DNA of 20,000 nt from an uncultured virus (IMG/VR IMGVR_UViG_3300047673_000294) (IMGVR_UViG_3300047673_000294), one strand, 5' to 3'. Counted from the first letter of the stretch, positions 1,480 to 20,000 are shown. Notes: generated by a model from the sequence alone, not told the origin. A program made the numbers and translations.

Positions 1480-1489
1480 ATCTGCCTCC

Positions 1490-2359
1490 TCACATCCAGG
1501 CCGAACGCCACGTGGCGGTCAGCGTCGCGCTTGCGTTGTAGGTGCTGGACTGGAACTGGTAGTTGACCGTCGAGCCCGCCGGGATGGTGGGCCAGCCTGC
1601 GGACACCGTCATGAACCGGCGCCTGCTCACGCCGCCGTTGAGGACCACCGTGTGTGCGTCGGTGTCGATGACGAGGCTGTCGCCGCTGGCCAGGTCGAGC
1701 GAGTAGGCGAGTTGCCGGACCGTGCCGTCCGGGTACAGGGCGGACACGGTGGGCGCGACGACGGGCCCGGCGATCGTGATGATCGGCCGGGTGTCCAGCG
1801 AGCCCGAGTTGACCGCGTTGATCTGCCCGGACACCGTCACCGCCGAGAAGGCCACCGGGAAGGTGACCGGGAACGTCAGGCCGCCGGTCGTGGCGGGCAG
1901 CCCGGTCGTGCCGGTCTGCAAGGTGGTGCCGTACCGGCGAGGATCGGCAGCCGTCACGAGGACCGACCAGGTCGCGGTCCGGTCGGTGACGTACTGGGCC
2001 AGCAGCTTCCCCGACCGCCTCACGGTCGCCTGCTTGGGCGTGGTCTCCCACACCGTCAGCGTCGTGTCCGTCAGGGCGGCCGCCGCGTACAGCTGGTCCA
2101 GCGCGGTATCGAGGGAGACCCGGTCCGGGGCCTCCACCGTGCCGGCCAGGGTGACGGGCCGGGACCCGAGATAGACCGGCGCCGCCCACGAGCCGTGATC
2201 CGCCTCCCGCTCCTGGACCTCGGCCCGCACCTCCGCGCTGTCCCAGCCCTCGAGGGACTGCAGGAACCAGGCCACCCCCACTGCGTCGACCGCGCCGAGG
2301 CGGAGTGTGCCGAGGGTGGCCTGCCGGCCGTCGATGTCCGTTCCTGGGGTGTAGGCCAC
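1490..2359 (-). CDS. Distal tail protein (Dit, 289 aa)
   Basis: First gene after the tape measure gene; GAGGAGG RBS; 'LEGWD', 'AADPRRY' and C-terminal 'WRSAW' patterns typical of actinophage Dit proteins. Confidence 0.85.
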   Translation of the reverse strand: MAYTPGTDIDGRQATLGTLRLGAVDAVGVAWFLQSLEGWDSAEVRAEVQEREADHGSWAAPVYLGSRPVTLAGTVEAPDRVSLDTALDQLYAAAALTDTTLTVWETTPKQATVRRSGKLLAQYVTDRTATWSVLVTAADPRRYGTTLQTGTTGLPATTGGLTFPVTFPVAFSAVTVSGQINAVNSGSLDTRPIITIAGPVVAPTVSALYPDGTVRQLAYSLDLASGDSLVIDTDAHTVVLNGGVSRRRFMTVSAGWPTIPAGSTVNYQFQSSTYNASATLTATWRSAWM

Positions 2360-2372
2360 CCGTCGCCTCCTC

Positions 2373-6431: not shown

Positions 6432-6434
6432 GGC

Positions 6435-6806
6435 TCACCCCCTGTTGCGCTTTTCGAGTTCGAGGTGGACGTGCAGCCCATCGATGGATTGGCCCTTGTC
6501 GCTCCGGGCCTTCACGGTCTTGGCCGACGTGGCGCAGGCGTGGCAACGGATGACCTCGGCCCGGTACGAGAACTCGTTCTCGGGGTCCGTTGCCTCGCTC
6601 CACTGCTGCTGGCAATCAGGGCAGGTGTCTGCCTCGACCTCGGCGAGGGCGAACGCCCAGGCTCGGTCTTCATCCAGGAACAGGGGCTCGCCCTCCGCGA
6701 CGACCCGCCCGAGGAAGACGCTTCGAGGCACCCCCCAGCGCCGTGCTGTCTCTACTTCTCGCCGATGAGGGAGGCCAGGAGTGCGGAGGCGGCCAACGAG
6801 AAAGGG
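6435..6806 (-). CDS. Tail assembly chaperone -1 frameshift extension (lambda gpT analogue; fused product spans 7273 to 6435)
   Basis: The -1 frame is open from the slippery site CCCTTTC (plus strand 6800-6806) to the stop at 6435: ...PFLVGRLRTPG...DRAWAFAL...CPDC...CHAC...; it fills the gap between TAC and TMP exactly. Confidence 0.8.
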   Translation of the reverse strand, partial: PFLVGRLRTPGLPHRREVETARRWGVPRSVFLGRVVAEGEPLFLDEDRAWAFALAEVEADTCPDCQQQWSEATDPENEFSYRAEVIRCHACATSAKTVKARSDKGQSIDGLHVHLELEKRNRG

Positions 6807-7273
6807 ACGACATCGCTGCTGTTGTGCACGTCCCATGCCGCGTCGAACAGCTTCTTGATCTCGCCCTCGTTGATGACCTCGAACAGCTCGGCGACCTGCT
6901 CGGGCGTCATCGTCGGCTGAACGCACGATGCGGCGACCAGCGCCCGCGGGAACGTCTCGGAGTCGAACGCCTCCTGGCTGCTCTCCGAGGGGTGCGCGGC
7001 CATCAGGTCCGAGTACGCCCGGTCGCCGATGTACCGGAACGTGAACGGCTCCTCGGCCGCCCGGACCTGCGTGTGCACCGCCTTGAGCTGCTCGGCGACC
7101 GCGCGGCCCGGGTGCACGTCCGTGAGGTCCTCCGGCTCCCAGTCCTCCGAGACGCGCGACAGTTCGTCCTGGAGACGTTCGGCCTCGCCCGCGAGGTCGC
7201 CCGCGAGGCAGACCTGGACGGTCTTCTCGCGCGGCTTCGCACGGGCGAGGATCTCCTCGATGCTGCTCGCCAT
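6752..7273 (-). CDS. Tail assembly chaperone (lambda gpG analogue, 173 aa)
   Basis: Acidic protein between the major tail and tape measure genes; start overlaps the MTP stop; 'VPFS' slippery codons near the C-terminus. Confidence 0.88.
   Translation of the reverse strand: MASSIEEILARAKPREKTVQVCLAGDLAGEAERLQDELSRVSEDWEPEDLTDVHPGRAVAEQLKAVHTQVRAAEEPFTFRYIGDRAYSDLMAAHPSESSQEAFDSETFPRALVAASCVQPTMTPEQVAELFEVINEGEIKKLFDAAWDVHNSSDVVPFSLAASALLASLIGEK
6800..6806 (-). other. Programmed -1 ribosomal frameshift slippery heptamer C CCT TTC
   Basis: X XXY YYZ pattern correctly phased in the TAC frame (GTC CCT TTC); the -1 frame continues to just before the TMP start. Confidence 0.8.
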
Positions 7274-7752
7274 CAGGCAACCGTCGCGGCGGTCGCCGGA
7301 GCGCTGGTGACCTTCATCGAACTGGTGAACTTCATGACCTCGTTCGACGCTGGCGCGTTGTTCTGCGGCTCGCCGCAGGTGATCGGGTACACCTCCGCCT
7401 TCTGGGACGTGGCCCAGGCGGTGGCGTAGGCGATGCCGCGGCGCACGACCAGGTATCCGCTGACGCCGTACTTCAGCGTCGCGAACGGCAGGTCCTCGGG
7501 CGTGGTGGTGCCCCGCTTGAAGGTCACCTCAGCGTCGTAGCCGATCCGGCCGACGGTTTTGGTGTCGAACGTGCTCGCCAGCGAGGACGTGTCGACGTCC
7601 GCCGTGCTGGGGTCGAGCTTGAGGCCGTCGGGGGTGATGCGCGGCGTGAAGTCCTGGCCCGCGTTCAGCTCGGTCGTGGTCGGGGCGTTGATGTTGGAAA
7701 TGGTCGTCGCCCAGACCACCTTGGTCATGCCGTCATTGATCAGGTCAGACAT
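7273..7752 (-). CDS. Major tail (tube) protein (159 aa)
   Basis: GAGGAGG RBS; 'INAPTTTELNAG.D', 'GYLVVRRG' and 'EVYPITCG' motifs typical of actinophage tail tube proteins; directly upstream of TAC. Confidence 0.9.
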   Translation of the reverse strand: MSDLINDGMTKVVWATTISNINAPTTTELNAGQDFTPRITPDGLKLDPSTADVDTSSLASTFDTKTVGRIGYDAEVTFKRGTTTPEDLPFATLKYGVSGYLVVRRGIAYATAWATSQKAEVYPITCGEPQNNAPASNEVMKFTSSMKVTSAPATAATVA

Positions 7753-7771
7753 GGGGCCCTCCTCGGGGCAT

Positions 7772-7795
7772 AAAGAAAGCCCCGGTAAACGGGGC
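7772..7795 (-). terminator. Intrinsic terminator
   Basis: Minus strand reads GCCCCG-TTTAC-CGGGGC followed by TTTCTTT, between the 7816-8148 gene and the major tail gene. Confidence 0.75.
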
Positions 7796-7815
7796 GGAGC
7801 GGGGCAGGGGGAGCG

Positions 7816-8148
7816 TCAGATGGTGAGGTTGGCGACGGTGACGCTGGTCGTCGACGAGTAGGTGATTGATGCGCTCACGCCGTCCGCGGCGGACGCGAAG
7901 AGCTTTTGGGTGAGCGGGCCGATCATCTTGTCGCCCGTGGTCGCCGGGACCGTGACGACGAGGTCGGTCACGGGCTGGCCGTCGACCTGGGCGGTCGCTG
8001 TGACCGTCACGGTCATCGAGCTGCCGTTCGTGTTCTTCACGTGCAGGAACGAGCGGTCGCCGCACGTCACTGTGGTGGATGCGGCCGCGGCCGAGTAGGT
8101 CGGGGTCAGGCCGGAACGCGCAATGGCCTGCTGCGCGAGTAGCGCCAT
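7816..8148 (-). CDS. Small beta-rich virion protein (110 aa), paralog of the 10261-10638 decoration-like protein
   Basis: Start reassigned to ATG at 8148 (GGAG RBS): MALLAQQAIARSGLTPTY...DLVVTVPATTGDKMIGPL...; shares a DLVVxVxA...IGP...F...DG pattern with 10261-10638. Confidence 0.75.
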   Translation of the reverse strand: MALLAQQAIARSGLTPTYSAAAASTTVTCGDRSFLHVKNTNGSSMTVTVTATAQVDGQPVTDLVVTVPATTGDKMIGPLTQKLFASAADGVSASITYSSTTSVTVANLTI

Positions 8149-8162
8149 GGGGGAATCTCCTG

Positions 8163-8573
8163 TCAGGCGGGGATGGACATCAGCCGGTACTGCACCGGCA
8201 CGAACCAGCTGGGAGGGTTGGTGTCGTCGTCGCGCTGTACCGGAGGCCCGCCCAGATCCTCCGGCCGCCACGTGGCCCGGCCCTCGACCGCCAGCGGCGT
8301 CGACAGGGCGGCACGCACCTTGTCGGCCGCCCACAGGGCGCGCTCCATCGAGCCGCCCACACAGGTGATCTGAAAGGTCGTCGTGAAGTCCGTGCGAGCG
8401 TCGGCGAGCGACTCCCGGACGGCCGCCCCGGGCTCCGGGTACAGCACGACATACACGTCGGGCGGCGACCAGCCAGCCGCCGTGGGCGCCCCGCCGAGGT
8501 ACACGGTCAGGCCGTCGGCCTCAAGCGCGGCCTGGACGGCGTCGACATGCGGCAGGACTGCTGGTGTCGTCAT
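8163..8573 (-). CDS. Tail terminator / tail completion protein (136 aa)
   Basis: Synteny; 'YVVLYP', 'FQITCVG', 'ADKVRAAL' and 'PVQRDDD' patterns typical of this family. Confidence 0.8.
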   Translation of the reverse strand: MTTPAVLPHVDAVQAALEADGLTVYLGGAPTAAGWSPPDVYVVLYPEPGAAVRESLADARTDFTTTFQITCVGGSMERALWAADKVRAALSTPLAVEGRATWRPEDLGGPPVQRDDDTNPPSWFVPVQYRLMSIPA

Positions 8574-8577
8574 CCGC

Positions 8578-8979
8578 TCACCACCAGGCCAGTCCGCGCT
8601 CGGCGATCAGCGCCAGCTGTGCTTCGAAGCGGGGCTCCTCGACGTCCAGGGCCCGACCGCCGTCCCGGTGCGGAGGGTTCTTCACCGAGCCGTACTCCAG
8701 CAGGTTGCCGAGTGCGCCCTGTGCGCCGCCCTTGTCCGGGCCGATGATGGCCAGGGTGAGGTCGGGGCCGTAGGCGGCGACGTCGTAGCTGATCGTGCGG
8801 GGGTAGGCCGGGGCGTGCTTCGGTGCGGACGCGCGGGCGTTTGTCTTCCAGTCCTTCTTGATGTTCATCGCGCCGCGCCGCACCACAGCCCGAGCATCGC
8901 GGCGCGCTCGGGGGATCGCGCGAGCCAGGTGCCGCTCGAGGCGCCGCACGTCGCCCATGTCGAAACGGGCACCGTTCAT
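8578..8979 (-). CDS. Neck / HK97 gp10-like tail completion protein (133 aa)
   Basis: Start reassigned to ATG at 8979 (ATGA overlap with the upstream stop); basic N-terminus and 'LGNLLEYGS' motif. Confidence 0.8.
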   Translation of the reverse strand: MNGARFDMGDVRRLERHLARAIPRARRDARAVVRRGAMNIKKDWKTNARASAPKHAPAYPRTISYDVAAYGPDLTLAIIGPDKGGAQGALGNLLEYGSVKNPPHRDGGRALDVEEPRFEAQLALIAERGLAWW

Positions 8980-9383
8980 GACCGGTCCTCCACTCTGATC
9001 CGCCACGCTGTGGACTGGTCGCTGAAGCTGGCCCCGGTGACCCACAGGACCAGGCCGGCCATGCGGGCATCGGCCGACGCGGTCACCTCGATACGGGTGC
9101 CGGGCAGCACGCGGGCGCCCGGCACGGTCGTCGACCACGGCAGGTGCACCTCGTACTCGCGCAGCACGAGTTCACGCTCACCGGCCTCGGTCTCCTGGCC
9201 GGTGCTCGCGGCGATGGCCTTCACGCGGGCCTTGCCCGTGTACAGGGTCGTCTGGGCGCCCGGCACGGTGGTACCGGTGTCCCGGTCGAAGGTGCCGTCT
9301 GCCTGCGTGTACAGACGGACGGTGTCGCGCATGCGTTCCTCGGCCGCCGCGCGCCCCGACGTCAGGATGGAGTCGAGGTTCAC
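8976..9383 (-). CDS. Head-to-tail stopper / head closure protein (135 aa)
   Basis: Start reassigned to GTG at 9383 (GTGA overlap with the upstream stop); 'GRAAAEERMRDTV', 'LYTGKARVK' and 'STAWRI' motifs; synteny. Confidence 0.78.
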   Translation of the reverse strand: MNLDSILTSGRAAAEERMRDTVRLYTQADGTFDRDTGTTVPGAQTTLYTGKARVKAIAASTGQETEAGERELVLREYEVHLPWSTTVPGARVLPGTRIEVTASADARMAGLVLWVTGASFSDQSTAWRIRVEDRS

Positions 9384-9943
9384 GGTGTGCCCACCACCCA
9401 TACGCACCGTTCGCCGAGTTCGCGCTGGAGGGCGGTGAGTTCGCCGGGCAGCAGGTCGCCGGCGGTCTGGGTGGCTTCGGCCGCGTAGGTCTCCCGGTAG
9501 TCGTCGATGGCCCGCTCGCGGATCCCGGCCTCCATGCCGACCGGGGAGTCCCCGATGCGGTTGGCGACCTGGCAGGCGAGTTCCACGATCCCGTCAGGCA
9601 CCGTCGCCCACCCGCGCCGGTAGGTGACGAGCACGCGCCTGGTCCGGCAGTCGGCCAGCCGCAGGTACTCGCCGTCCCACCACCAGCCCGTGAGGGCGCT
9701 GGTGGTGCCGTCCTCGGCGACCGCCGACACCGTCTGGACTTCCAGGATCGGCGGGGCGGGCAACTCGACTCGGTCACTGTCGACGGTGAGCTGGACGGTG
9801 ACGACGCTCGGAGTGATGGGCTGTCCTGCCGCGCGCCGGATACGGACCGACGCGCGGGTGAGTAGGGCGGCGGCGGACGCCTCCGACAGGCTGTAGCCGT
9901 AGGCGGTGGCGTCCTCGGGCGTGGCCAGGGAGGGGAGTGGCAC
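9380..9943 (-). CDS. Head-to-tail adaptor (187 aa)
   Basis: GAGGAGG RBS; 'LATPED...LLTRASVRIR', 'VTYRRGW..VPDGI' and 'ERAIDDY' motifs; synteny. Confidence 0.82.
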   Translation of the reverse strand: MPLPSLATPEDATAYGYSLSEASAAALLTRASVRIRRAAGQPITPSVVTVQLTVDSDRVELPAPPILEVQTVSAVAEDGTTSALTGWWWDGEYLRLADCRTRRVLVTYRRGWATVPDGIVELACQVANRIGDSPVGMEAGIRERAIDDYRETYAAEATQTAGDLLPGELTALQRELGERCVWVVGTP

Positions 9944-9953
9944 GGGTCCCTCC

Positions 9954-10259
9954 TCAGCTGCTCGGGGTGCCGTACTTCTCGATGAGGTCGGCCTTGGTCA
10001 TGCCGTCCGCCTCTTCGGCATCGGCACCCTGGACGACCGCCCAGCCCATCCAATCCGCCTTGCTGGCGCTTCGGGCAGGCTCGGTGAGCGGGGGCGCCGG
10101 GACCTGGTCGTCGTCCGAAGGCTCGGTGTACAGGCTGCCGTCCTCGTTGACGCGCTGGAGCATGCCCTTGCGCAGCCGTTCCTCGATCGGCTCGGGCAGC
10201 GGCAGGTCCATCGCGTGGATGCCGCCGCCCTCGCCCCGCAGGTGGATCGTCTCGGCCAT
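9954..10259 (-). CDS. Hypothetical phage protein (101 aa) with a small C-terminal helical domain
   Basis: Tightly spaced in the operon. The C-terminal 'ASKADWMGWA...GMTKADLIEKY' resembles the small helical domains often encoded after actinophage capsid genes. Confidence 0.75.
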   Translation of the reverse strand: MAETIHLRGEGGGIHAMDLPLPEPIEERLRKGMLQRVNEDGSLYTEPSDDDQVPAPPLTEPARSASKADWMGWAVVQGADAEEADGMTKADLIEKYGTPSS

Positions 10260-10260
10260 G

Positions 10261-10638
10261 TCAGGTGTTCCTCGGAACTCGCAGGGCGGTGATGGTGCCG
10301 GGGACGACGGCGGCGGCCACGTCGACGAGCATGCTGCCGTCGTTCTGCAGGAACCGGCCGGACTCGAACGGGCCGATCCAGGAGATCGTGTTGGCGGCGA
10401 CGTTCACGACCAGGTCGCCCTGGCCGCTGGCGATGGCCAGGGGCAGGGTGCCGGCCTTGATGGTGACGTTGCCGCCGGTCGAGCCGGCCGCGACGCGGAG
10501 CACGGTGAGCTCGGGTTCGGCCTTGGCGATCGTGTGCCCGTTGCTGGTGCCCGGGTTGAGGGTGACCGCGGTGAGCGAGGAATCCGCCACGCCCGCGTTG
10601 GGAACGAAGCTGTTGTACGCGACAGCGGTGCGTGCCAT
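10261..10638 (-). CDS. Probable capsid decoration / cement protein (125 aa)
   Basis: GGAGG RBS; immediately downstream of MCP; small, beta-rich, A/G/T/V-rich. Function inferred from position. Confidence 0.7.
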   Translation of the reverse strand: MARTAVAYNSFVPNAGVADSSLTAVTLNPGTSNGHTIAKAEPELTVLRVAAGSTGGNVTIKAGTLPLAIASGQGDLVVNVAANTISWIGPFESGRFLQNDGSMLVDVAAAVVPGTITALRVPRNT

Positions 10639-10653
10639 GTCTCAGGCCTCCGA

Positions 10654-11508
10654 TCAGGTCTGGGAAGCGATGGCCGTGGCCAGCGCCTCGGGACGGATGA
10701 CCTTCGCGCCGTACAGCGCCAGGCCCTTGACCGCGTCCGAGAAGCTGCTCTCGGGTCGGTAGGCCTCGGTCTTGTTGATCTGCTCGGCGAAGGAGATCGC
10801 CGTGCCGTTGCCCGCGGTGACCACGTAGTCGTCGCCGGTCGGGTTCGGGGCGTTGTTGGACCGCATGATCGTGAAGCCGCCCGACGAGCCGACGATGCCG
10901 TTGCGGAAGGCGTTACCGCTGTCGCCGGACTTGTCGGCGTTGATGAAGTTCGGGTCGAGCAGCGCGCGACCGTAGAGCCACGGCGGGATGACCATCCACC
11001 GGTTCTCGGCCGGCACGTTGGCCTGGTCCAGCGTCACGCCCAGCGGGACGACGATCTTCGAGTAGAAGTACTCGGGGTTCGCGACCGGGACCGCGATGGT
11101 GCCGAGCTGGTTCGCGGACTGCGCCTGGGTGTAGAGGCTGGCCAGGTACTGGTCGACCACGTCGGAAAGCCCGTAGGACGCCTCGGACATGGCCTGCGGC
11201 ATCACGTCGCCCTTGGCCTGCCGCTTGTCGACGTCATCGACCTTGAACGCCCAGTACTTCGACTGGTCGACGACCAGCGTGCGCTGTGCGTCGGTCAGCT
11301 CCTCGGGCGTGATGACCGTCTGGTTCGGGACGTAGGTCCCGATCGTCGGGCGGGAGATCGAGGTGATGCGGACGGTGTCGCCCGCTTCCTGGATCTCGCC
11401 CTCGTAGTCGCGGTTGACCATGCCGGGCCCGCCGTACACGAGGTTCTTGCGGAGTGCGACCAGGAGCTTGGCGGACCAAATCTCCGGCCGGAAACGCTTG
11501 ATGGACAT
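10654..11508 (-). CDS. Major capsid protein (P22 coat-like HK97 fold, 284 aa)
   Basis: 'FRPEIWSAKLL', 'NRDYEGEI..AGDTVRI', 'LDQANVPAENRW' and 'DAVKGLALYGAKVIRPE' motifs; GAGG RBS; follows the scaffold gene. Confidence 0.93.
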   Translation of the reverse strand: MSIKRFRPEIWSAKLLVALRKNLVYGGPGMVNRDYEGEIQEAGDTVRITSISRPTIGTYVPNQTVITPEELTDAQRTLVVDQSKYWAFKVDDVDKRQAKGDVMPQAMSEASYGLSDVVDQYLASLYTQAQSANQLGTIAVPVANPEYFYSKIVVPLGVTLDQANVPAENRWMVIPPWLYGRALLDPNFINADKSGDSGNAFRNGIVGSSGGFTIMRSNNAPNPTGDDYVVTAGNGTAISFAEQINKTEAYRPESSFSDAVKGLALYGAKVIRPEALATAIASQT

Positions 11509-11527
11509 CGGTTTCCTCTCGGGGTGG

Positions 11528-12265
11528 TTATCCGCCGAGGTAGTCGCGGAGCTGACCCTTGCGGTGAGCCTCGTCGATCTGCTCGGGCGTCATCTTCTTC
11601 ACGTCCTGCTCGCTGAGCTGCTTGGGGCCGCCGGTCCCCTTGCGGGCGCCGCCGTCTCCGGTCCCCTGGAACCTGGGCTCGGGTGCCTTTGCGGCAGTTC
11701 CCAGGTAGGGGCGCTCCTTGAGGAGGTCTTCGATCGCGTCGGCGATCTCGGTCTCGTCGACCTGGCCGTCCTCGTCGACCTCGAACTGGGTCAGGTCGAG
11801 GAAGGCGAGGGCGTCCCGCGGATTGGTGAGCTTGCCCGCGGCGGCGGCCCGGACCTCGGAGCGCACGATGCGGGCGTTGGCCCGGCCTGTCGCGGCCCGG
11901 TCGGCTTCGCTGCGGATCCGCTCCGGATCGTTGGCGTCGCCAGTGCCCTTGAGCTGGTCGCGCTCGGTCTCGGCGGCCTTGCGCCGCTCCCGCTCCGTGC
12001 GCAGCCGCTCCTTCATCGACTCGAGGGCCTTCTTGCCGGGGTCGCCGAGCTGGTCGGCGCCCTCCGGGTCCTTGTCATCGTCGCCGTCGTCCTGGTCGTC
12101 TCCGGTGCCGGAGTCGTCCTGGTCGTCGGCGTCGCCGTTGTCCTGGTCGTCGTCCTGGTCGTCGCCGTCGGCGTAGAAGACGGGCGACCAGGGGCCCACC
12201 GGGTAGGGGTGAGACCAGCCGGCGGCATGGCCACGGGCACGGCGAGGCAGGGTGGAGAGATCCAT
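11528..12265 (-). CDS. Capsid scaffolding protein (245 aa)
   Basis: Acidic low-complexity N-terminal region, 'LGDPGKKAL..MK' coiled coil and 'KERPYL' motif; directly upstream of MCP; GGAG RBS. Confidence 0.88.
   Translation of the reverse strand: MDLSTLPRRARGHAAGWSHPYPVGPWSPVFYADGDDQDDDQDNGDADDQDDSGTGDDQDDGDDDKDPEGADQLGDPGKKALESMKERLRTERERRKAAETERDQLKGTGDANDPERIRSEADRAATGRANARIVRSEVRAAAAGKLTNPRDALAFLDLTQFEVDEDGQVDETEIADAIEDLLKERPYLGTAAKAPEPRFQGTGDGGARKGTGGPKQLSEQDVKKMTPEQIDEAHRKGQLRDYLGG
12089..12163. repeat. Four copies of the 12-mer GTCCTGGTCGTC (encoding DDQD) within the scaffold gene
   Basis: Exact copies at 12089-12100, 12116-12127, 12140-12151 and 12152-12163. Confidence 0.85.
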
Positions 12266-12272
12266 GTGCGTG

Positions 12273-12312
12273 CTCCCATTGCGGAAGTCGGGACCGCGCG
12301 TTGCGCGCGGTC
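12273..12312 (-). promoter_or_regulatory. Paired GCAAY-loop hairpins in the scaffold leader; the second sequesters the RBS
   Basis: Minus strand: GACCGCGC-GCAAC-GCGCGGTC, then CTTCC-GCAAT-GGGAG, 7 nt before the ATG. Confidence 0.55.
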
Positions 12313-13363
12313 AGGTCAGATAGCCGAAGCGGCGCAGCATGGCGATCGCCTCGTCGCGGCTCCCGGCGAGCTCGTAGATCTGCTCGGGCAGGAGCCGCGC
12401 CGTCGTCAGCCGGTACTGGCGGCCGATGTCGGCACGCACACGGCCCCTGGCGATGTCCCGGGCCCGTTCCCGCCGGTAGAAATGGCCGCGCGTCGTCGTG
12501 CCCTCGCGCGTTGCGCGCACCGCCCGTCCGGAGGCGGTCGTGATGGTGTACATGCCCCGACGGGCGTTGACGATCTGGCCCATGTCGGCGCCCTCGCGGA
12601 TCGCCTGCGCCCCGGCCGCGGTGAACACTCGGTCCTGCTCGGGCCGCGACAGGCCGGCGAAGTAGGACCGCGGATCGACGACGCCCCGGGCGCTGCTGCC
12701 GAAGCGGGTCGTGGGGCTGTCCCCGTTGAGCCCGCCGCGATGCTGGTTGCGGGCGATCAGTGTGGTCGGCAGGTGGATGCAGTCGCAGCGTGGGTGCCTC
12801 TGGAAGCCCTTGTTCCAGCCGTACTCCACGCCCGCCAAGATGATGCAGCGGGCGCAGGCCGGCGGCTGTACGACGCGGACGTAGCCCTGGATCGTGCGGC
12901 GCCCCGTGATGCCGACGCCGACAGCCCCCCTGCCTGCGTCGGCGACCTCCGAGCGCACGATCGTCGCCAGCAGCCCGCGCCCGGCCCGGAGGCCCTCGTC
13001 CGCGCTCGCGCCCTGTCCGATGGTCCGGTACGCGGCGATCAGCGGCCGCATCAGCAGCGTGTCCAGCGTCCGTCCGTCCGCGGCGACACCGGCGAACGCT
13101 GAGGCGTTGACCGTGTCGGCGGCCTCGGCCTCGGCGCCCTGCGCGGCCGCCGTCTCTGCGACGTAGTCGGTCGCCCCGTCGGCAGCGGCCAACTGGCCCG
13201 CGGTCAGGACGGTCACCAGGCGGGGGCCGATGACGGACCAGGAGGCGCGCAAATCGGCGACGTTCAGCAGGCCCCACTCGCGCAAGGCTGCGGCCATGGT
13301 GGCGACCGCGATCTTCCGCTGCCGGACCGCGTACTGCCCGGCCAGAGCGAGCGGCTGTGTCAC
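12311..13363 (-). CDS. MuF-like minor head protein (350 aa)
   Basis: Between portal and scaffold; 'CARCIILAG...FQRHPRCDCIHLP' Cys/His motif; GTGA overlap with the portal stop. Confidence 0.82.
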   Translation of the reverse strand: MTQPLALAGQYAVRQRKIAVATMAAALREWGLLNVADLRASWSVIGPRLVTVLTAGQLAAADGATDYVAETAAAQGAEAEAADTVNASAFAGVAADGRTLDTLLMRPLIAAYRTIGQGASADEGLRAGRGLLATIVRSEVADAGRGAVGVGITGRRTIQGYVRVVQPPACARCIILAGVEYGWNKGFQRHPRCDCIHLPTTLIARNQHRGGLNGDSPTTRFGSSARGVVDPRSYFAGLSRPEQDRVFTAAGAQAIREGADMGQIVNARRGMYTITTASGRAVRATREGTTTRGHFYRRERARDIARGRVRADIGRQYRLTTARLLPEQIYELAGSRDEAIAMLRRFGYLT

Positions 13364-14829
13364 GGCCCGCCGTCCCGGGCCGGATCCTCATGCGGGGCCG
13401 ACGTCGGATTGATGGCGGGAGGGCCGCCGCCCATGATGGCGGCCACCGGATCCAGTTCGGCCTCCCGAGCCCGCATATCCATCAGCGTCGTGACCTCGGT
13501 CGGCGTCAGACCGAAGCGCAGGGCGAGCCACTCGAAGGGGAACCCGATCTGCTTCAGCTTCAGCAGGCTGTCCGTCAGCTGCGCCAGGTTCCGCGACTGC
13601 GGGTCCTTCCACAGCACCGTTCCGGCGGCCAGCGCCTTGCCCTTGGCGTCCTCGCCGCGGGCCAGACAGATCAGCTGGAACACCTCACGCAGGGCCTGCC
13701 CGAACCACAGCTGCTTCTCCTCGACCCGCTTCACCAGGCCGGTCTCCGCCGCGATCAGCGCGTCCCCGCTGAGGTTGGCCATGCGGCCGATCAGGTAGTG
13801 CGCCGGAGTGCGGGTCTGTGCGGCGATGTGCCCGACGGCCACCTCGATGACGTCGGTGTAGGCCGTCAGGTTCGCCGCGTTCCAGCTCTCGACCTTGGCC
13901 TCGGGGTTCTCCAGCCACAGGATGCGGTCGGTGACGAACTTCTTCAGGTCGATCGGCCGCTCGCCGACCTTCTGCCCGTTCGCGTCCAGGATCGGCACCT
14001 TGGGGATCTCGGCGCCGATGATGATGCGCTGCTCGAGGCTCGCGTAGTCCGCGGTCGTGAACAGCATCGCCCAGATCAGGTTGATGGCGTCCTGCATGGC
14101 GATCACACCGGACACGTCCGACACCGGCTCGGAGGCCAGCAGCGGCCGGTTGGGCAGCTCCACCATCGGCACCACGCCCATGGGGTTCGGCTGCGGGTTC
14201 GGCTCGCTCTCGAGTTCCCGGGGCGTCCACGACTGGACGACCGCGTCGGCCTCGGCCATCTGCGGCGACTTCTTGTCCCCGGCGGACAGCGGCCGCTCGA
14301 ACTTCCACACCTCTGTGGGCAGGTACAGCGTGGCGTACTCGCTGAAGCCGTCCTGCCACATCTTCAGCGCGGCCCGCCGCCGGCGCCTCGAGCCCGGCTC
14401 GTACTGCACGACGGCCGACGACGCGTCCTCGAACGTCACACAGGGGGTGTCCTCGTCGGAGGGGTCACCCCACACAAGGACGAACGACCGGGCCGCGTTC
14501 CCCGCGCCGAGGAACCCCAGCTGCGAATCGGCGTCCAGGCCGTTGCGCTGCCACACCTCCCACAGCTCGGAATCCGCCTTCACGTCGCCAGGCGCCTGCA
14601 CCCCGGTGACGGTGAGCCGCTCCACCGGCGAATCGGCGACCGGCTGCACCCAGTTGTCCGAGAACCCCTCGTAGCGGTCGGCGCAGTACGTGCGGAACTC
14701 GTCCGAGGCGAACCGCAGGGGGTGCTTGCCCCGGTAGTACCGGTCGTGCCGCAGCACCGCGCCCGAGCGGGACGTCAGCTCCGTCGCGAGGACATCGACC
14801 AGGCGCCGGGCCTGTTCCTCCGTAGCCAC
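13360..14829 (-). CDS. Portal protein (SPP1 gp6-like, 489 aa)
   Basis: Follows terL; 'RYYRGKH', 'NWVQPVAD...ERL', 'GVVPMVELPN', 'TPAHYL', 'NLSGDAL' and 'LWKDP' motifs. Confidence 0.93.
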   Translation of the reverse strand: MATEEQARRLVDVLATELTSRSGAVLRHDRYYRGKHPLRFASDEFRTYCADRYEGFSDNWVQPVADSPVERLTVTGVQAPGDVKADSELWEVWQRNGLDADSQLGFLGAGNAARSFVLVWGDPSDEDTPCVTFEDASSAVVQYEPGSRRRRRAALKMWQDGFSEYATLYLPTEVWKFERPLSAGDKKSPQMAEADAVVQSWTPRELESEPNPQPNPMGVVPMVELPNRPLLASEPVSDVSGVIAMQDAINLIWAMLFTTADYASLEQRIIIGAEIPKVPILDANGQKVGERPIDLKKFVTDRILWLENPEAKVESWNAANLTAYTDVIEVAVGHIAAQTRTPAHYLIGRMANLSGDALIAAETGLVKRVEEKQLWFGQALREVFQLICLARGEDAKGKALAAGTVLWKDPQSRNLAQLTDSLLKLKQIGFPFEWLALRFGLTPTEVTTLMDMRAREAELDPVAAIMGGGPPAINPTSAPHEDPARDGGP

Positions 14830-14841
14830 GCTCGCCCCCTC

Positions 14842-16473
14842 TCATGCCGTGTAGGCGTAGTAGGTGGGCGGTGGCGCGGCCTGGCCCGCGGCGATGGCGT
14901 CGGTGGCCGCCTCGTGGGCGAGGATCGATACGACACAGAGGTCGATCTTCTGCTGGTGCGTGGCCTTGCGCAGGACGTACCGGTTCGCCGGCCTGGCTGC
15001 TTTCCGGGCGTTCCGCACGTGGATCGAGGTGGTCTCGCATCCGTCGTGCCAGAACTCTGTCTTCGCCTTCGTGACGTCGGTGAGCAGCTGCTCGCACGCC
15101 GCGTGCATCTGCGCCGTGCGCTGCGTGTGCCACTCGGTCACCCGCTTCTCGCCGTGCCGGGCCTGCCAGGCCGCGACTTCGCTGGTCCAGTACGGCGGGT
15201 CGCAGTACATGCGGACGACTTCGTAGCGGCGCATCAGCTCGTCGACCGCGGCGTCGACCTCGAGCCGCGGTACCTGGCCCTCCCACTCGGCCGGGTCCCA
15301 GATACACGGCCGCCGGTCCGGCCCGTAGACCGGGGTGAACTGGTAGCCGTCCAGGGTCTCGGCCCGGATCCCGGTCCAGTCGTCCACGTCCGAGCCGTCG
15401 AAGCCGAGGACCACCCGGGCGCCGTCCGGGACCGCTCGAGGCTTTTTCCGGGCGTCCCAGTGGTCCTGCTGGACCCAGGCGCCCATGCCCGCGGTGATTC
15501 GGTTGCCGTAGAAGCGTTCCGCCTCGGCCGGCTCCTTCTCCATCAGCTCGGCGGCCTCGCCCTCGATGGCGTCGAGGTCGATGTGCGAACTGCCCGCGTA
15601 CACAGCGGTGTGGATCTTCCGCCGCTCCGCCTTGTTCGTGTACGAGAGGCCCTTCGGCGGCAGCCGGTGGAACCGGTACACGTCCCGCGCCTTTGTCTCA
15701 GCGGTCTTCTGGGCGACCGAGTTCTCGGTGGGGTCCCAGGCGTTCGTCTGCTCGAGGGAGCGGCCCGACATGCCCGCCAGGCCGCGACGTTGGGTTGTCG
15801 CCACCTTGGTCATGCCGTTGCCGTCGTTCCAGATGCCCGTCTCATCCTGTGCGGCGAACGTGATCGGGTTGCCGAGACGGGACTGCGCGCTCGAGGTGAC
15901 GACGTCGATCCGGCCGTCGTTCGGCAGCCGGATGAACTGCTCACCGACCCGCATCACTTCGGACAACGGTCCGTTCCGGATCATCGCCTGGAGAGGTCTG
16001 TACGTGTTGTCGGTCTGGTCCTCGGACGTCGCCGTGATCTGGATCAGCGGCTGATTCCACGGCCGGCCCATCGGCTCGCCCGGCTCGTACTCGTACACCC
16101 AGCCGCAGCCACAGCGGTGGTCGCGGCAGCGGTACCGCTCCCCGCCCTGCGCCCACCCGTTGAACAGCACCGGGCCGACCGCCTCGGCGGCGATGATGCT
16201 CGCCGCCCAGGGGCCCTTGCCGGACTTCTGCGGAGCGACGGCCTGCGCCCGCCGGTAGTGGAAGGCGGTCGAGAGCTGCCCGAGCTGGGCGGTCGGCTTG
16301 ACCCGGTAGAGGTTGGCCGTGATCCGCAGCTGCCAGTCGTACATCTGGAACGGCTTGGGCCGGAGGTCGAGGCCACCGACGGACTGGAGCAGGCAGTGCC
16401 GGGCGATCCAGTCCGGGACGACGTACAGGGTGGGGACGTCGAGCGGCCAGGTCCCGTCGTCAGCCGCTACCAC
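14842..16473 (-). CDS. terL: Terminase large subunit (543 aa)
   Basis: Walker A-like 'PQKSGKG', Walker B 'FAAQDE', nuclease motif 'LGFDGS..DDWT' and C-terminal 'KIDL'. Confidence 0.93.
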   Translation of the reverse strand: MVAADDGTWPLDVPTLYVVPDWIARHCLLQSVGGLDLRPKPFQMYDWQLRITANLYRVKPTAQLGQLSTAFHYRRAQAVAPQKSGKGPWAASIIAAEAVGPVLFNGWAQGGERYRCRDHRCGCGWVYEYEPGEPMGRPWNQPLIQITATSEDQTDNTYRPLQAMIRNGPLSEVMRVGEQFIRLPNDGRIDVVTSSAQSRLGNPITFAAQDETGIWNDGNGMTKVATTQRRGLAGMSGRSLEQTNAWDPTENSVAQKTAETKARDVYRFHRLPPKGLSYTNKAERRKIHTAVYAGSSHIDLDAIEGEAAELMEKEPAEAERFYGNRITAGMGAWVQQDHWDARKKPRAVPDGARVVLGFDGSDVDDWTGIRAETLDGYQFTPVYGPDRRPCIWDPAEWEGQVPRLEVDAAVDELMRRYEVVRMYCDPPYWTSEVAAWQARHGEKRVTEWHTQRTAQMHAACEQLLTDVTKAKTEFWHDGCETTSIHVRNARKAARPANRYVLRKATHQQKIDLCVVSILAHEAATDAIAAGQAAPPPTYYAYTA

Positions 16474-16933
16474 CGGACACCGCCCTCAGCCTGGCGCGTG
16501 CCGAGTCCGGAGCGATGACCGGGGCCGCGCTCGGTTCGGCCGGCGCTTCGTCCTCGTCGGTGGGCCGGTCGATGCGCCACCGGTTGGACCGCATACCGGG
16601 CATCGTCAGGCCGAGGCTGTCGGCCATCTGCCGAACCAGGGTGCCGAGGTTGACGAAGGCCTCCGGCTTCTCGGCCTCGGCCAGGCGCCGGACGTACAGG
16701 GCGACCTCGATGTACTGGCTGCACCGCTCCCACATGTGGGCCTGCGGCATCTCCCAGAGCTGGTCCCAGAGTTGGGCTTCGCGGTCGGTCTGCTCGGTGA
16801 GGGGCCAGTCGGGCGTTGCGCCCTGGCGGCCCTCGGCGGGTAGGATCGTCCACTCGCCAGCGTCTCGTTCACGCCGCAGCGCGTCGGGGTCGGGTGCCGG
16901 TCCGGACCGAGAGCGGGCGCCCCCCTTCGTCAT
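16460..16933 (-). CDS. terS: Terminase small subunit (157 aa)
   Basis: 'GGARSRSGPAPDP' N-terminus, 'W..LW..PQA..W' and 'LGLT' motifs; overlaps the terL start. Confidence 0.85.
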   Translation of the reverse strand: MTKGGARSRSGPAPDPDALRRERDAGEWTILPAEGRQGATPDWPLTEQTDREAQLWDQLWEMPQAHMWERCSQYIEVALYVRRLAEAEKPEAFVNLGTLVRQMADSLGLTMPGMRSNRWRIDRPTDEDEAPAEPSAAPVIAPDSARARLRAVSGGSG

Positions 16934-17106: not shown

Positions 17107-17123
17107 GTTGATCACTCCAACTG

Positions 17124-17322: not shown

Positions 17323-17553
17323 TCATCGCCAGAGGTACAGGGCCTCGCCGTCCTGGTGCCGGTGCTCGTGCTCCGGGGCGCCGGGCGGCAGGTCCGGGTC
17401 GGGGGCCGGCCCGGTGCAGGTGACGTGCGCCAGGGCCGGCAGGAAGTGAGGCCGGCCGCACACGGTCTCCTGCGCCTCGGCCGCTGTCTGGCCCTCGCGC
17501 TCCGTCTGCTCTGCCTGCTGCTCGTCGTCCCTTGCCTTGGCCTTGGTCGTCAC
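17323..17553 (-). CDS. Hypothetical protein (76 aa) with Cys/His residues in its C-terminal half
   Basis: GAGGAG RBS and GTG start overlapping the upstream stop (GTGA). Confidence 0.7.
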   Translation of the reverse strand: MTTKAKARDDEQQAEQTEREGQTAAEAQETVCGRPHFLPALAHVTCTGPAPDPDLPPGAPEHEHRHQDGEALYLWR

Positions 17554-17804
17554 TGTGTCTCCTCATGTGGTGTCTGGCCGAGCCCCTTGAGCGCGGCCGC
17601 GCTGTCGGACAGCAGCGTCTTGCCGAGCACCTCGTCCCGAATGAAGGTGAGACAGTCGGCCTCGGTGAAGAAGGCGACACCACCGAGGGAGAAGCAGCCG
17701 GGCCCGGCCTGAAGGGTCGCGAGCCACGGGGCTTCGGGTGCGAAGGGGTTGGTCTCGGGGTCGTCATCGTGCTCAGCCCACCAACCGTCACGTGTCGTTG
17801 TCAC
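17550..17804 (-). CDS. Hypothetical protein (84 aa)
   Basis: Start reassigned to GTG at 17804 (GTGA overlap with the HNH stop; AGGAGG 9 nt upstream): MTTTRDGWWAEHDDDPE... Confidence 0.65.
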   Translation of the reverse strand: MTTTRDGWWAEHDDDPETNPFAPEAPWLATLQAGPGCFSLGGVAFFTEADCLTFIRDEVLGKTLLSDSAAALKGLGQTPHEETQ

Positions 17805-18157
17805 GCGTTCCATCCTCCTGGCTGGTGCTTGGCTGTCTCGCTGCTGTGGCACGGTCCGCAGAGACCGCGACCATGCCGGGGATCGTCGGGGTCCAGGCCA
17901 GCGGCGACGAGCGCCTTGCGGTCGAGCGGCCAGTGATCGGCGTGCTTGCTTGGTACGTTCCTGCACAGCACGCAGGTTGGGTCCTTGGCGAGGACGCCGG
18001 GGCGGAAGCGGCTCACGTGCCCGCGGCCGTAGCCGCGCTGTCGTGCGCTGCCTCGCTGCTTCTCAGCCTCGCTGCGGTGGTCGTCGCACTTGCCGTGCTG
18101 CGTGTATTCGGGGCAGCGGGGCACCGAGCAGACGCGCCAGCTCTGGGACTTGGGCAT
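17801..18157 (-). CDS. Phage HNH endonuclease (terminase-associated type, 118 aa)
   Basis: Start reassigned to ATG at 18157 (GGAGG RBS); 'CSVPRC...C..H', 'ARQRGY', 'CVLC...ADH' and 'LCGPCH..ETA' motifs; lies upstream of terS. Confidence 0.88.
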   Translation of the reverse strand: MPKSQSWRVCSVPRCPEYTQHGKCDDHRSEAEKQRGSARQRGYGRGHVSRFRPGVLAKDPTCVLCRNVPSKHADHWPLDRKALVAAGLDPDDPRHGRGLCGPCHSSETAKHQPGGWNA

Positions 18158-18197
18158 GCCGCCTCCGCTACGGTGTCGCCCCTTGGGGGTGGTGAGC

Positions 18198-18359
18198 ATG
18201 AAGCAGAAGCTGGACGTTCCACTCGGGATCGTCGTGGCCGGCGTGGTGCTGATGATCGGCTGCCGACTGATCACGTGGTGGCCGGGTGTGATCGTGGGCG
18301 CGGCGCTGATCCTCGGCGTCCTGGCCTCGGTGGCTGTGAAGCGGAGGCCGAGGCAGTAG
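18198..18359 (+). CDS. Small antisense membrane protein (53 aa), moron-like
   Basis: MKQKLDVPLGIVVAGVVLMIGCRLITWWPGVIVGAALILGVLASVAVKRRPRQ: two hydrophobic helices with basic ends; fills an otherwise empty gap; followed by a terminator. Confidence 0.7.
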   Translation: MKQKLDVPLGIVVAGVVLMIGCRLITWWPGVIVGAALILGVLASVAVKRRPRQ

Positions 18360-18386
18360 CGTCGGCGCGCGCCGACGTTGGGCACG

Positions 18387-18422
18387 ACGAAGCCCCCGGG
18401 TTCAGGTCACCGGGGGCTTCGT
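18387..18422. terminator. Bidirectional intrinsic terminator
   Basis: Perfect 13-bp inverted repeat ACGAAGCCCCCGG / CCGGGGGCTTCGT with a 10-nt loop, between convergent genes. Confidence 0.85.
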
Positions 18423-18465
18423 GTGCGTCTGTGGTGCCCATGTGCGGGCACAGCTGTACGCCGAA

Positions 18466-18494
18466 AGCGTTACATGTCGCTGACCTGCGGTCAA
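18466..18494 (-). promoter_or_regulatory. Possible late promoter
   Basis: Minus strand TTGACC-N16-TAACGCT overlapping the HTH stop codon; the -35 overlaps the palindrome TGACC-N3-GGTCA (18481-18493). The -10 match is imperfect. Confidence 0.3.
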
Positions 18495-18691
18495 GCGGCC
18501 TTGCGGGTCTGTCGTTTGGCGGCGAGGGCGGCGACGTCTTGGATGGGGTACCAGGGCTGCCCGACGGTGCCGCCGGAGCGGGTGAGCTGTCCGCGGTGGA
18601 CGAGGAGGCGGACACCTCCGAGGGTAATGCCGAGCTGCCGGGCGACCTGGTGGGCGGTCAGGTGGCCGGGCCGGATGATCTGCGACTCCAT
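18491..18691 (-). CDS. Small MerR/excisionase-like helix-turn-helix DNA-binding protein (66 aa)
   Basis: Start reassigned to ATG at 18691: 'LTAHQVARQLGITLGGVRLLVHRGQL...WY...DVAAL', a typical MerR/Xis-type HTH pattern. Confidence 0.8.
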   Translation of the reverse strand: MESQIIRPGHLTAHQVARQLGITLGGVRLLVHRGQLTRSGGTVGQPWYPIQDVAALAAKRQTRKAA

Positions 18692-18737
18692 GCCTCCATG
18701 ATGCGGCCTGCGGGGGTTTTCAGGGTCATCCCTAAGA

Positions 18738-18882
18738 ACCCCTCTACGCCCACTACGACGCAGGTGAGGGCCCACTACAGGGGGGTCTACGGCGGTAGAG
18801 ACCCCCCTCTAGATCCACTCGCCGGGTAGGGGTGGTCAAGAGGGGGTCTCGTAGCGGGGGTTGTAGAGCCCTACCCCTCTAC
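18738..18882. repeat. CTAC/GTAG-rich direct and inverted repeat tract (clt-like) just downstream of the FtsK/TraB gene
   Basis: ACCCCTCTAC at 18738-18747 and 18873-18882; GCCCACTAC at 18748-18756 and 18770-18778; perfect 10-bp IR AGGGGGGTCT (18779-18788) / AGACCCCCCT (18799-18808); near-IR AGAGGGGGTCTC (18839-18850); GTAGAG at 18795 and 18863. Confidence 0.65.
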
Positions 18883-20000
18883 CGGGCGTTGAGGAGCTCG
18901 GCTGGCATCGCGGCTTCGAGGTCCTCGCGGCGGTACCCGGCGAGGTTCTTGCCGCCGATGTTGACCTGCTTGGTCATGCGCTTCACGCCGGCGTCCTCCA
19001 GCTCCTTGGCGAGGCGTTCGGCGTCCCAGTCGCCGTAGTCCTCGTCGAGGTTCTCCAGCCGGGCGAGGAGGTCGACGGTGTGGAGCTTGGGGCTGTGCCG
19101 CATGACGGCGAGGCAGTCGGACAGGACGGGGCTGATGGTGATGCCGGAGGCTTCGGCGATGACGCTGGGGTCGTTGGCGGCGTCGCCGGTGAGCTGGCCG
19201 CAGCCTTCGCGCAGGGCGCGGCCCTTGGCGCACATGGTGTTGAAGGCGGCGGTCTCCAGCATGTCGGCCTTCACGGTGACGAAGGATGCCGGACCGGTGA
19301 CGAGGACGCCGACGCCCTTGTGCTCCTCGGAGAGGACGGACGCGTCCGCGCCCTGGGAGGCCTTGCTCTTGCCGAGGATCATGTCGGAGGACGTCTGGTC
19401 GGTGACCTGCGTCGAGTAGCGGATGGTGATGATCTCGCGGAGCTTGGTGGGCACGGACTTGGCGTCGGGGCGCTGGGAGGCGTAGTTGGAGATGAACCCG
19501 GCGGCGGGGCCGCGGCGGGCGATGCGCGCCATGTCGTTGATGATCTCCTCGCGCTCCTGGTCGTCGACGGCGAGGAACGCTTCCTGCAGCTCGTCGACGG
19601 TGAACAGGACGAACGGCATGTTGTAGCGCTTGACGATCTCGGGGGTGAGCTTGCCCTCGGGGCAGATCGAGGTGGGCAGGCCGCGCAGGATGGAGAAGCG
19701 GCGCTCCATCTCGGCGAGCAGCTCTTTCAGCAGGGCCCGGAAGGCGAGGATGGCGTCCTCTTCGGCGCCGAGGACCAGGCGGTGGGCGACTTGCCGCGTC
19801 TGGATCCAGTCCTGGCCGCCCTTGAAGTCGCAGACGTAGTGACGGACGTAGGGGTCGAGGAGGCCGGCGGCGGTCAGGAGGCGCTGGGAGAAGGTCTTGC
19901 CGCGCCGGGGCAGGCCTCCGAAGAACATCGACTGCCAGACGATGGGCAGGGTGACACGGTTGCCGCGGGCGTCCTGGCCGAAGGGGATCGGGTCCCAGAT
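18879..20000 (-). CDS. FtsK/SpoIIIE-family DNA translocase, TraB-like (5' end outside the window)
   Basis: Frame open to the window edge (IWDPIPFGQDARG...). Walker A GLPRRGKT, 'DFKGG', Walker B LFTVDELQE, 'SQRP' motif, and a C-terminal winged-helix-like domain (LHTVDLLARL...ERLAKEL...GYRREDL). Confidence 0.9.
   Translation of the reverse strand: MWDPIPFGQDARGNRVTLPIVWQSMFFGGLPRRGKTFSQRLLTAAGLLDPYVRHYVCDFKGGQDWIQTRQVAHRLVLGAEEDAILAFRALLKELLAEMERRFSILRGLPTSICPEGKLTPEIVKRYNMPFVLFTVDELQEAFLAVDDQEREEIINDMARIARRGPAAGFISNYASQRPDAKSVPTKLREIITIRYSTQVTDQTSSDMILGKSKASQGADASVLSEEHKGVGVLVTGPASFVTVKADMLETAAFNTMCAKGRALREGCGQLTGDAANDPSVIAEASGITISPVLSDCLAVMRHSPKLHTVDLLARLENLDEDYGDWDAERLAKELEDAGVKRMTKQVNIGGKNLAGYRREDLEAAMPAELLNAR

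Follow-up and report, generated by a model that had tools for sequence, protein, structure and literature searches.

Why should a tailed phage, which has a terminase for moving its DNA, also carry the gene of a second DNA pump, of the kind that Streptomyces plasmids use for conjugation, and carry it directly in front of its packaging genes? The question is raised by one end of a 20,000-nucleotide stretch of DNA (here called the window) from an uncultured virus, IMGVR_UViG_3300047673_000294. The 3' part of a gene for a predicted TraB-type, FtsK-like double-stranded DNA (dsDNA) translocase (traB; 373 codons and stop, 18879..20000, minus strand, open at the window end) lies there next to a siphovirus virion operon. 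A first-pass annotation had placed the end of this gene about 720 bp from an HNH endonuclease gene, and the distance from the traB stop (18879) to the HNH start is indeed 721 bp if that start is taken at Met77 (18157). It had also described the translocase as co-oriented with an intact packaging, head and tail module, and this description holds: all credible genes of the window, judged by lists of open reading frames (ORFs) and a screen of G+C content at third codon positions (GC3), are on the minus strand, and the operon is unbroken, with no visibly broken late gene. The further suggestion was of one element with two DNA motors that spreads both in virions and from hypha to hypha. The best explanation is that the window makes up one half of a temperate Streptomyces siphophage whose complete genome, of 40.6 kb, was assembled as a circle; the architecture of this genome is well supported, and the two modes of spread are plausible.

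What kind of translocase is it? The part of traB within the window covers the motor domain and the C-terminal tail; the N-terminal 327 codons lie beyond it and were read, like all genome context outside the window, from a near-identical viral record (G001), in which the full-length protein has 700 amino acids. The ORF has a GC3 of 0.96, and its Walker A (GLPRRGKT, about 19893-19916) and Walker B (FVLFTVDE, about 19590-19613) motifs are intact. The Pfam FtsK_SpoIIIE model (PF01580; cut-off 24 bits) recognizes it weakly (23.1 bits, E 5.8e-5, for the window fragment; 25.8 bits for the related locus L015), the 'FtsK/SpoIIIE-like' phrog_1358 more clearly (E 2.4e-23), and the closest PDB sequences are 6o1w (a 'DNA translocase coupling protein'; E 3.6e-9) and FtsK (2iuu, E 3.3e-5). 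Aligned as a family of 65 sequences, the protein and its relatives match TraB of plasmid pSVH1 over 594 columns by hhalign (30% identity, probability 99.9%, E 2.3e-34); by tblastn, identity is about 30% to proteins encoded by pSVH1 and by an S. viridosporus plasmid of 12.2 kb, a record the size of pSG5. The nearest plasmid relative is a 725-residue 'FtsK/SpoIIIE' protein (71% identity) of a Streptomyces decoyicus plasmid (NZ_CP107886), a 14.6-kb unit assembled as a dimer, with genes for GntR, prim-pol, a P4-type primase and a recombinase, and no phage genes; traB is the only gene common to this plasmid and the phage.

The same 65-sequence alignment was made into a profile and scored against relatives and against the proteins of an isolate genome that carries a related prophage (lysogen G002). 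Relatives from an actinomycete integrative and conjugative element (AICE) and a plasmid, L034 and L001, score 1381 and 1328 bits, the TraB of linear plasmid L024 297 bits, and pSVH1 TraB 170 bits; a 740-residue TraB-like protein encoded elsewhere in the lysogen scores 82 bits and small Tra-like proteins 24-49 bits. Two multi-domain, EccC-like lysogen proteins (1,3xx residues each) score about 13 bits, and its best PF01580 protein (947 residues, presumably FtsK) 9.2 bits, the EccC and FtsK labels being assigned from length and domain count. The expectation that this ATPase would group with TraB and not with chromosomal FtsK or EccC is thus borne out (170 bits for pSVH1 TraB vs 13 and 9). Phage databases hold nothing comparably close: the window fragment has no match at E<=1e-5 among 50,697 phage records, and the full-length protein finds there only remote 'FtsK-like DNA translocase' genes (at most 27% identity, best E 4e-9), as does pSVH1 TraB when used as the query. 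From the profile, the alignment and the plasmid identity, set against these remote phage matches, the predicted protein is a TraB of the plasmid and AICE type and not the FtsK-like gene annotated in many actinophages. (A technical note: the NCBIfam model plasmid_TraB scores 18.8 bits against a cut-off of 800; it is an equivalog model of another kind of TraB and was not used.)

A TraB of this type should have a DNA sequence to recognize. The clt (cis-acting transfer) loci of Streptomyces plasmids hold direct repeats, 8 bp long, that are read by the cognate TraB, according to the accessible text of two papers (PMC4447253, PMC3583192). A putative clt-like array is found directly after traB, at 18739..18881 (minus strand), and its placement matches that published rule: three direct copies of the 8-mer TAGAGGGG, read on the gene strand, stand at 18739, 18804 and 18874 (this third copy overlaps the traB stop), together with inverted GGGGGTCT copies. 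Three copies in the window compare with 0.26 expected (2 of 200 shuffles reach three), and in the whole 40.6-kb genome the word occurs nowhere else; all three copies lie within 136 bp after the traB stop, in an array of 143 bp. Each of 15 further phage-context loci (15/15) has TAGAGGGG at -2, +68/69 and +133/134 from the traB stop and nowhere else in 12-21 kb; AICE-type loci have it at +68/69 and +133/134 (3/3), a 5.3-kb locus of unassigned context at +3, +74 and +139, and the plasmid relative NZ_CP107886 has two copies after its traB stop. A 17-nucleotide block, GTGGATCTAGAGGGGGG, is invariant in all 17 aligned sequences. pSVH1 has its own repeats, of the GACCCGGA type, at the same place. The TraB C-terminus resembles the C-terminal end of DUF3631/RepAM at a score below threshold (19.3 bits, E 0.0014, in the window; 24.7 bits in the AICE relative L034), and RepAM, as far as the accessible part of PMC2440964 describes it, binds 8-bp repeats. 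An ESM Atlas look-up of this C-terminal part returned one unnamed cluster at 0.88 and was uninformative. As a separate observation, the linear plasmid L024 (NZ_CP109237), which also has conjugation genes of the type IV secretion type, repeats the words GACACC/GGTGTC directly after its own TraB gene (21146-21350); they are similar to the TGACACC repeats given for the pWTY27 clt in the accessible text of PMC3583192.

Do the translocase and the virion genes belong to one element? The overlap of G001 with both ends of the window identifies the latter as a circular permutation of a closed 40.6-kb genome: positions 852-20000 correspond to G001 1-19149 (99.94% identity) and positions 1-978 to G001 39750-40727, and G001 shares 100% of the window's sampled words. 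(Six IMG/VR contigs carry an exact 51-mer from the window end.) G001 has 40,727 bp with a 127-bp terminal overlap; we take 127 bp to be the length of a common largest assembly k-mer, and the ends (1-127 and 40601-40727) are probably the mark of a circular assembly path and not a physical terminal repeat. The predicted map runs from the integrase and attP (tRNA-Thr) through early and replication genes to the transfer cassette, the HNH gene and terminase, head, tail and lysis, so that a complete temperate-siphovirus gene set (integrase and attP, terminase, portal, capsid, tail tube, tape measure, lysis) is present in one replicon. The ORFs scanned in G001 include a single tyrosine integrase, and neither a second replicon nor a second recombinase. 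The attP is marked by 44 bp that follow the integrase gene immediately and match the 3' end of a Streptomyces tRNA-Thr(UGU) gene at every position (100% identity); it lies outside the window, about 15 kb from traB. The related prophage of G002 (TraB 89% identical; late genes 73-77% identical in nucleotide sequence) has a pair of 45-bp direct repeats, one copy at 33144 and one, inside tRNA-Lys, at 74419; this pair encloses integrase, TraB, virion genes, lysin and GntR.

The circular record, the single integrase with its attP some 15 kb away and the one repeat pair around everything in G002 make traB and the predicted virion genes one element and not two neighbours. One replicon with two predicted DNA motors, TraB and the large terminase subunit TerL, is thereby demonstrated, as had been proposed; the att site or AICE boundary at 18400-18880 that would have spoken for two adjacent elements is absent, the whole interval between traB and the HNH gene holding neither a tRNA gene nor an att site. 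Strictly speaking, the element does not qualify as an AICE: it has an integrase, att, genes of the replication type and Tra, but also, within the same att pair, the full set of virion and lysis genes.

The contrary reading, in which an AICE happens to lie beside a prophage or an assembler has joined two genomes at a shared 1.6-kb stretch, nevertheless has real observations to build on. Position 18383 is a mosaic breakpoint at the foot of a hairpin, where identity to sister phages stops abruptly, and two mosaic forms co-occur in one sequencing run and in the same family of metagenomes, which makes a chimera at the shared stretch a concern. Logan contigs, however, bridge 18383 with 0-1 mismatch in three of four runs (18181-18491 in X1, 17223-18491 in X2, 18191-18707 in X3); in run X4, where the other mosaic form is present, no contig bridges it. 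Depth, summed over contigs, differs across the junction, being 2.5- to 4-fold higher on the TraB side (18457-20000 vs 17247-18456; runs X2 and X4; 33 vs 7.7 in X2); contigs are a poor measure of depth, and the higher TraB-side value fits a cassette common to more than one phage in the same sample. The 24 runs consulted, all DNA from rhizosphere and soil metagenomes of one year, possibly belong to one campaign and possibly include the source sample, and it is therefore the isolate genomes that provide independent support: the same gene order occurs in nine of them. The junction at 18383 is real, and the reading as two independent neighbours or a chimera, against which the circular record, the single integrase and attP and the G002 repeat pair also speak, has practically nothing left to it; it is refuted as far as sequence can refute it.

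What, then, has the phage acquired? As predicted from its genes, the cassette encodes a DUF6907 protein, then a membrane protein that is polytopic and has an HTH_17 tail, a further small protein and TraB, and the clt-like array follows. Phage and AICE versions of the DUF6907 protein are 47-56% identical, and those of the small protein before TraB 59%. The membrane protein precedes TraB in all phage loci read; that of one relative matches DUF2637 (E 3.6e-17), a family that the SpdB2 homologue of L024 (34% identity to SpdB2, E 4e-36) matches below cut-off (21.5 vs 22.8 bits). Locus context was scored by tblastn with marker proteins in 20 loci, 12 from species-representative Streptomyces genomes and 8 from IMG/VR. 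Terminase and portal follow TraB at 1-3 kb on the same strand in nine of the 12 genome loci, where TraB is at least 91% identical and where, in eight, a helix-turn-helix (HTH) gene is found as well; seven of the eight IMG/VR loci share the TraB-terminase-portal arrangement, and the order TraB, HTH, (HNH), terS, terL recurs also in L006. The synteny of FtsK, HTH, HNH and terS genes to which the first-pass annotation had pointed is accordingly a recurrent one. The remaining three genome loci, with TraB 74-75% identical, lack the phage arrangement: two are AICE-type elements of about 15 kb with integrase or recombinase, replication-type genes and chromosomal flanks, and the third is without phage genes by Pfam.

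The cassette has evidently travelled. Pfam confirms the phage layout in five IMG/VR contigs, whose upstream replication modules differ. The TerLs behind TraBs of at least 91% identity fall into four groups with at most 31% mutual identity or no BLASTP match, and G001 and a sister phage share only one 4.7-kb block (96.5% identity), which consists of the membrane protein, small ORFs, TraB, repeats and HTH. TraB relatives reported at E<=1e-5 number 601. A first tree (69 rows, quick IQ-TREE, including 46 of the 120 listed database relatives) placed 16 of 16 phage-context TraBs in one clade (SH-aLRT 99). Single capture by phages was dropped when a scan with a 77%-identical relative gave phage-context TraBs elsewhere in the tree: L070, L076 and L083 are phages by Pfam or strong tblastn matches, and their TraBs sit among those of AICEs and plasmids. 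A second tree, of 50 rows, from which L024 and most database rows were left out, needs at least four changes of context, which establishes, at the level of gene phylogeny, that the cassette has crossed repeatedly between AICEs or plasmids and phages. Capture by the phage of a cassette of the kind found in AICEs and small actinomycete plasmids is the best explanation for what is seen in the window. It might still be a recent passenger without function in the phage, and a mobile block with sharp mosaic ends is what such a passenger would look like, but this is very improbable. Compared over the 1,119-nucleotide part of traB in the window, 13 phage copies give a median ratio of nonsynonymous to synonymous change (dN/dS) of 0.19 (78 pairs, maximum 0.345); traB is open over the compared part in all copies read, and its position is conserved in phages with four terminase types. 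The predicted cassette is intact and under purifying selection, and its cis repeats have been kept.

Comparison with systems already described places this phage between familiar things. TraB and clt of pSVH1 (with pSG5 and pIJ101 Tra/KilA) are like it in nearly full-length protein homology, FtsK-type Walker A and B motifs and a repeat array right after the gene; the phage differs in its repeat word (TAGAGGGG vs the GACCCGGA type), in having neither an adjacent full-length GntR repressor nor a detectable SpdB2, and in the situation of its traB in a tailed-phage genome, between replication and packaging genes. The cassettes of Streptomyces AICEs and small plasmids (NZ_CP107886, 71% identity; L034 and L036, 74-75%) have the same layout, that is, a DUF6907 protein, a protein of about 400 residues, a small protein, TraB and a TAGAGGGG array, but these elements are about 15 kb long, with integrase or recombinase and replication genes and no virion genes, and the phage has in addition a full set of genes for virion, lysis and lysogeny. 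Functionally, the nearest precedent is pZL12, a plasmid-phage (phage ZL12; GQ919031, 90.4 kb), which also combines virion and transfer genes: its FtsK-like gene 71c precedes the large terminase gene 67c on the same strand by about 2.5 kb, with genes for a membrane protein and a GntR further upstream, and its conjugal transfer depends on a main tra gene together with two neighbours, according to the accessible text of PMC3583192. It differs in that 71c is without sequence similarity to the phage TraB (BLASTP E 0.19; profile -1.1 bits) and in being twice as large and possessing ParAB, whereas the phages described here measure about 40 kb and use tRNA genes as integration sites. The precedent cited in the first-pass annotation therefore stands; the word 'rare' does not, since many phages have the cassette. 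The genes annotated as 'FtsK-like DNA translocase' in isolated actinophages (Gilgamesh and the TP1604 group among Streptomyces phages; a cluster of mycobacteriophages of about 110 kb) share the P-loop superfamily and phrog_1358 and are only 25-27% identical over the motor domain (best E 4e-9 with the full-length query). SpdB2 homologues have been noted on phages phiC31 and VWB; these concern Spd proteins and not TraB with clt. TraB-mediated transfer and plasmid-phages are thus each already known, and the literature covered, which took in few of the subscription journals, held no description of an integrative tailed phage of Streptomyces with a TraB-type gene and clt in its genome.

How might the two motors be used? 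TraB forms a hexameric pore and recognizes clt through its C-terminus, in the account given by the accessible text of PMC4447253 and PMC3583192. By its likeness to pSVH1 TraB, the phage protein would be a membrane-anchored, hexameric, FtsK-like pump, whose C-terminal tail would dock at the TAGAGGGG repeats when the phage genome is a double-stranded circle, either the excised prophage or a replicating form; the pump would then drive phage DNA across hyphal cross-walls, into a touching hypha, or both. The outcome would be a route independent of virions (conjugation-like from lysogens, intramycelial spread of an infection, or the two together) beside terminase packaging into virions. We lean somewhat toward virion-free movement of the phage genome in one or both of these forms. 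The more specific proposal is offered tentatively, as a possibility on the doubtful side: that TraB and clt constitute a 'movement module', traded by AICEs, plasmids and phages, through which a circular genome would be pumped from compartment to compartment and into touching hyphae without virions.

A number of observations weigh against virion-free movement and should be set down together. The sole hydrophobic stretch that could anchor the protein (residues 155-192 of the G001 protein) is moderate, with a Kyte-Doolittle value of about 1.5. A profile of the last 120 TraB residues finds no PDB chain at E<=10, and the sub-threshold DUF3631/RepAM match is the only hint of a C-terminal winged helix. 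In the clt region the median p-distance, 0.21, is not below the dS of traB (0.10-0.36), and constraint is confined to the motif copies. A homologue of pSVH1 SpdB2 was not detected in the phage (BLASTP E 4.3; hhalign probability 0.8%), and no full-length GntR repressor of the Kor/TraR kind was found adjacent to or divergent from the tra operon; the only GntR in the phage is a 96-residue winged-HTH protein without a UTRA domain (36% identity with the HTH portion of the GntR from the plasmid), encoded 16 kb from traB, between the lysis genes and the integrase. The search beyond position 20000 that had been recommended has thus given a mixed return: integrase and attP are there, the canonical adjacent repressor and SpdB2 homologue are not. 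Finally, the lytic programme could kill the donor compartment, and conjugation would then serve no purpose unless TraB worked from genomes that are excised and non-lytic.

If TraB does not send the phage genome abroad, what else might it do? It might work vertically, pumping the DNA of a phage or prophage-plasmid across sporulation or vegetative septa, as a clearing or segregation device of the FtsK/SffA kind, with no transfer between mycelia. The location of traB at the end of the early (replication) block, 5' of a strong hairpin, agrees with such a role, and FtsK-like genes are common in actinophages, lytic ones included, with roles in replication suggested for them in the accessible parts of bioRxiv 10.1101/2024.02.16.580700 and PMC11536984. 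The protein is far closer, however, to plasmid and AICE TraB than to those phage translocases (at most 27% identity, best E 4e-9), a plasmid-type clt array has been kept, and an integrated prophage needs no segregation pump; we regard a purely vertical role as unlikely. Somewhat less probable still is service as a moron, in which the cassette would benefit the lysogen or compete on its behalf (by mobilizing the chromosome, by excluding or hijacking AICEs and plasmids with the same repeats, or by superinfection exclusion) while the phage itself is not moved. The PHROGs class of the nearest phage family, 'moron, auxiliary metabolic gene and host takeover', points that way, as does the presence of the same TAGAGGGG repeats on Streptomyces AICEs and a plasmid, which makes cross-talk possible; yet in 15 of 15 phage loci the putative recognition repeats stand on the phage genome itself, directly after traB, where a cis transfer site needs them and an exclusion gene does not.

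The 721 bp between traB and the HNH gene contain a predicted 66-residue DNA-binding protein, MerR-like or HTH_17-like (18491..18691, minus strand; phrog_2474, E 4.7e-12), whose gene is found 3' of traB in most phage loci and not in the AICE relatives. A perfect hairpin with 13-bp arms follows (18387..18422; z -4.1) and is likely to be the end of the early transcription unit of TraB and HTH. The mosaic junction, where the TraB-HTH block meets the HNH gene, coincides with a 53-codon ORF on the plus strand (18198..18359; GC3 0.87) with two predicted hydrophobic helices; this ORF looks like a moron and has no relative in any locus compared.

The packaging block begins with the HNH endonuclease gene (17801..18157, minus strand, like all the genes that follow), which is identified by phrog_589 (E 4.4e-17, residues 81-193 of ORF 17801-18385); Pfam gives no HNH match in this ORF at E<=0.01. 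Three small ORFs, with no family matches in Pfam, PHROGs or NCBIfam, separate it from the gene for the small terminase subunit (terS, 16460..16933; Pfam Terminase_7, 28.8 bits); the ORFs at 17323-17553 and 16930-17115 have no relatives in the loci compared. Between the small ORFs and terS is the only terminator-like stem with a T-run in 16800-19000 (17277-17291, minus strand; GTTACCCAGGGTGAC then ATTTTTTTCA), in a region where a cos site or a late promoter would be expected. The second motor, TerL (14842..16473), shares 60% identity by tblastn with its counterparts in Streptomyces phages Kromp, Dubu and phiSASD1 and has no Pfam match. A portal protein of the SPP1 type (13360..14829; Pfam, 96.3 bits) comes next, and the rest of the operon (448..13363) encodes, by Pfam, a VG15-like protein, scaffold, capsid, connectors and tail proteins, among them the tail tube (7273-7752), tape measure (2373-6431) and Dit (1490-2359), with a distal tail protein at 448-1479.

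Outside the window the gene order in G001 begins with the remaining 5' part of traB and some small ORFs, followed by the membrane protein with its HTH_17 tail and the DUF6907 protein; then two HNH_3 genes, a gene for SSB (single-stranded DNA-binding protein), a 766-residue protein, the one tyrosine integrase and the 96-residue GntR-type protein; and then an XhlA-like ORF and a neighbouring small ORF (89 residues each), an amidase endolysin and a tail-fibre-like protein. The two HNH_3 genes of the early region (G001 23336-23854 and 31197-31898) and the packaging HNH gene add up to three HNH genes in 40.6 kb.

Terminase-like genes turn up, too, where a virion is not in evidence. Two AICE-sized IMG/VR contigs (L074 and L075, 14.7 and 15.0 kb) have a gene for a 552-residue TerL-like protein (L074:6632-8290, L075:12192-13850; 32% identical to the window TerL; TerL_nuclease E about 1e-5) together with TraB, its TAGAGGGG array and either an integrase or a replication protein of the DUF927 family; the TerL-like gene apart, no virion genes were seen in them, and they may be satellite-like elements that join transfer with packaging piracy. 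An AICE-type element in a Streptomyces genome (L036:13119-13538, minus strand) encodes a 139-residue Terminase_7 match (E 8.3e-8).

Conjugation by dsDNA pump and infection by tailed phages have been treated as separate routes of gene flow in Streptomyces. Here the machineries of both are found in one integrative phage of 40 kb, and the pairing is no one-off: it recurs in the prophages of nine or more species-representative genomes of Streptomyces and in numerous viral contigs from soil and rhizosphere, in front of unrelated packaging modules. The element blurs the operational line by which finders of prophages and of AICEs separate these two kinds of element. If TraB does move the phage genome, lysogeny could spread without lysis, receptors alone would not set the host range of the phage, and the phage would bypass defences directed at adsorption or injection. 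A bacterial virus would then have a route of spread, from cell to cell, within a multicellular host.

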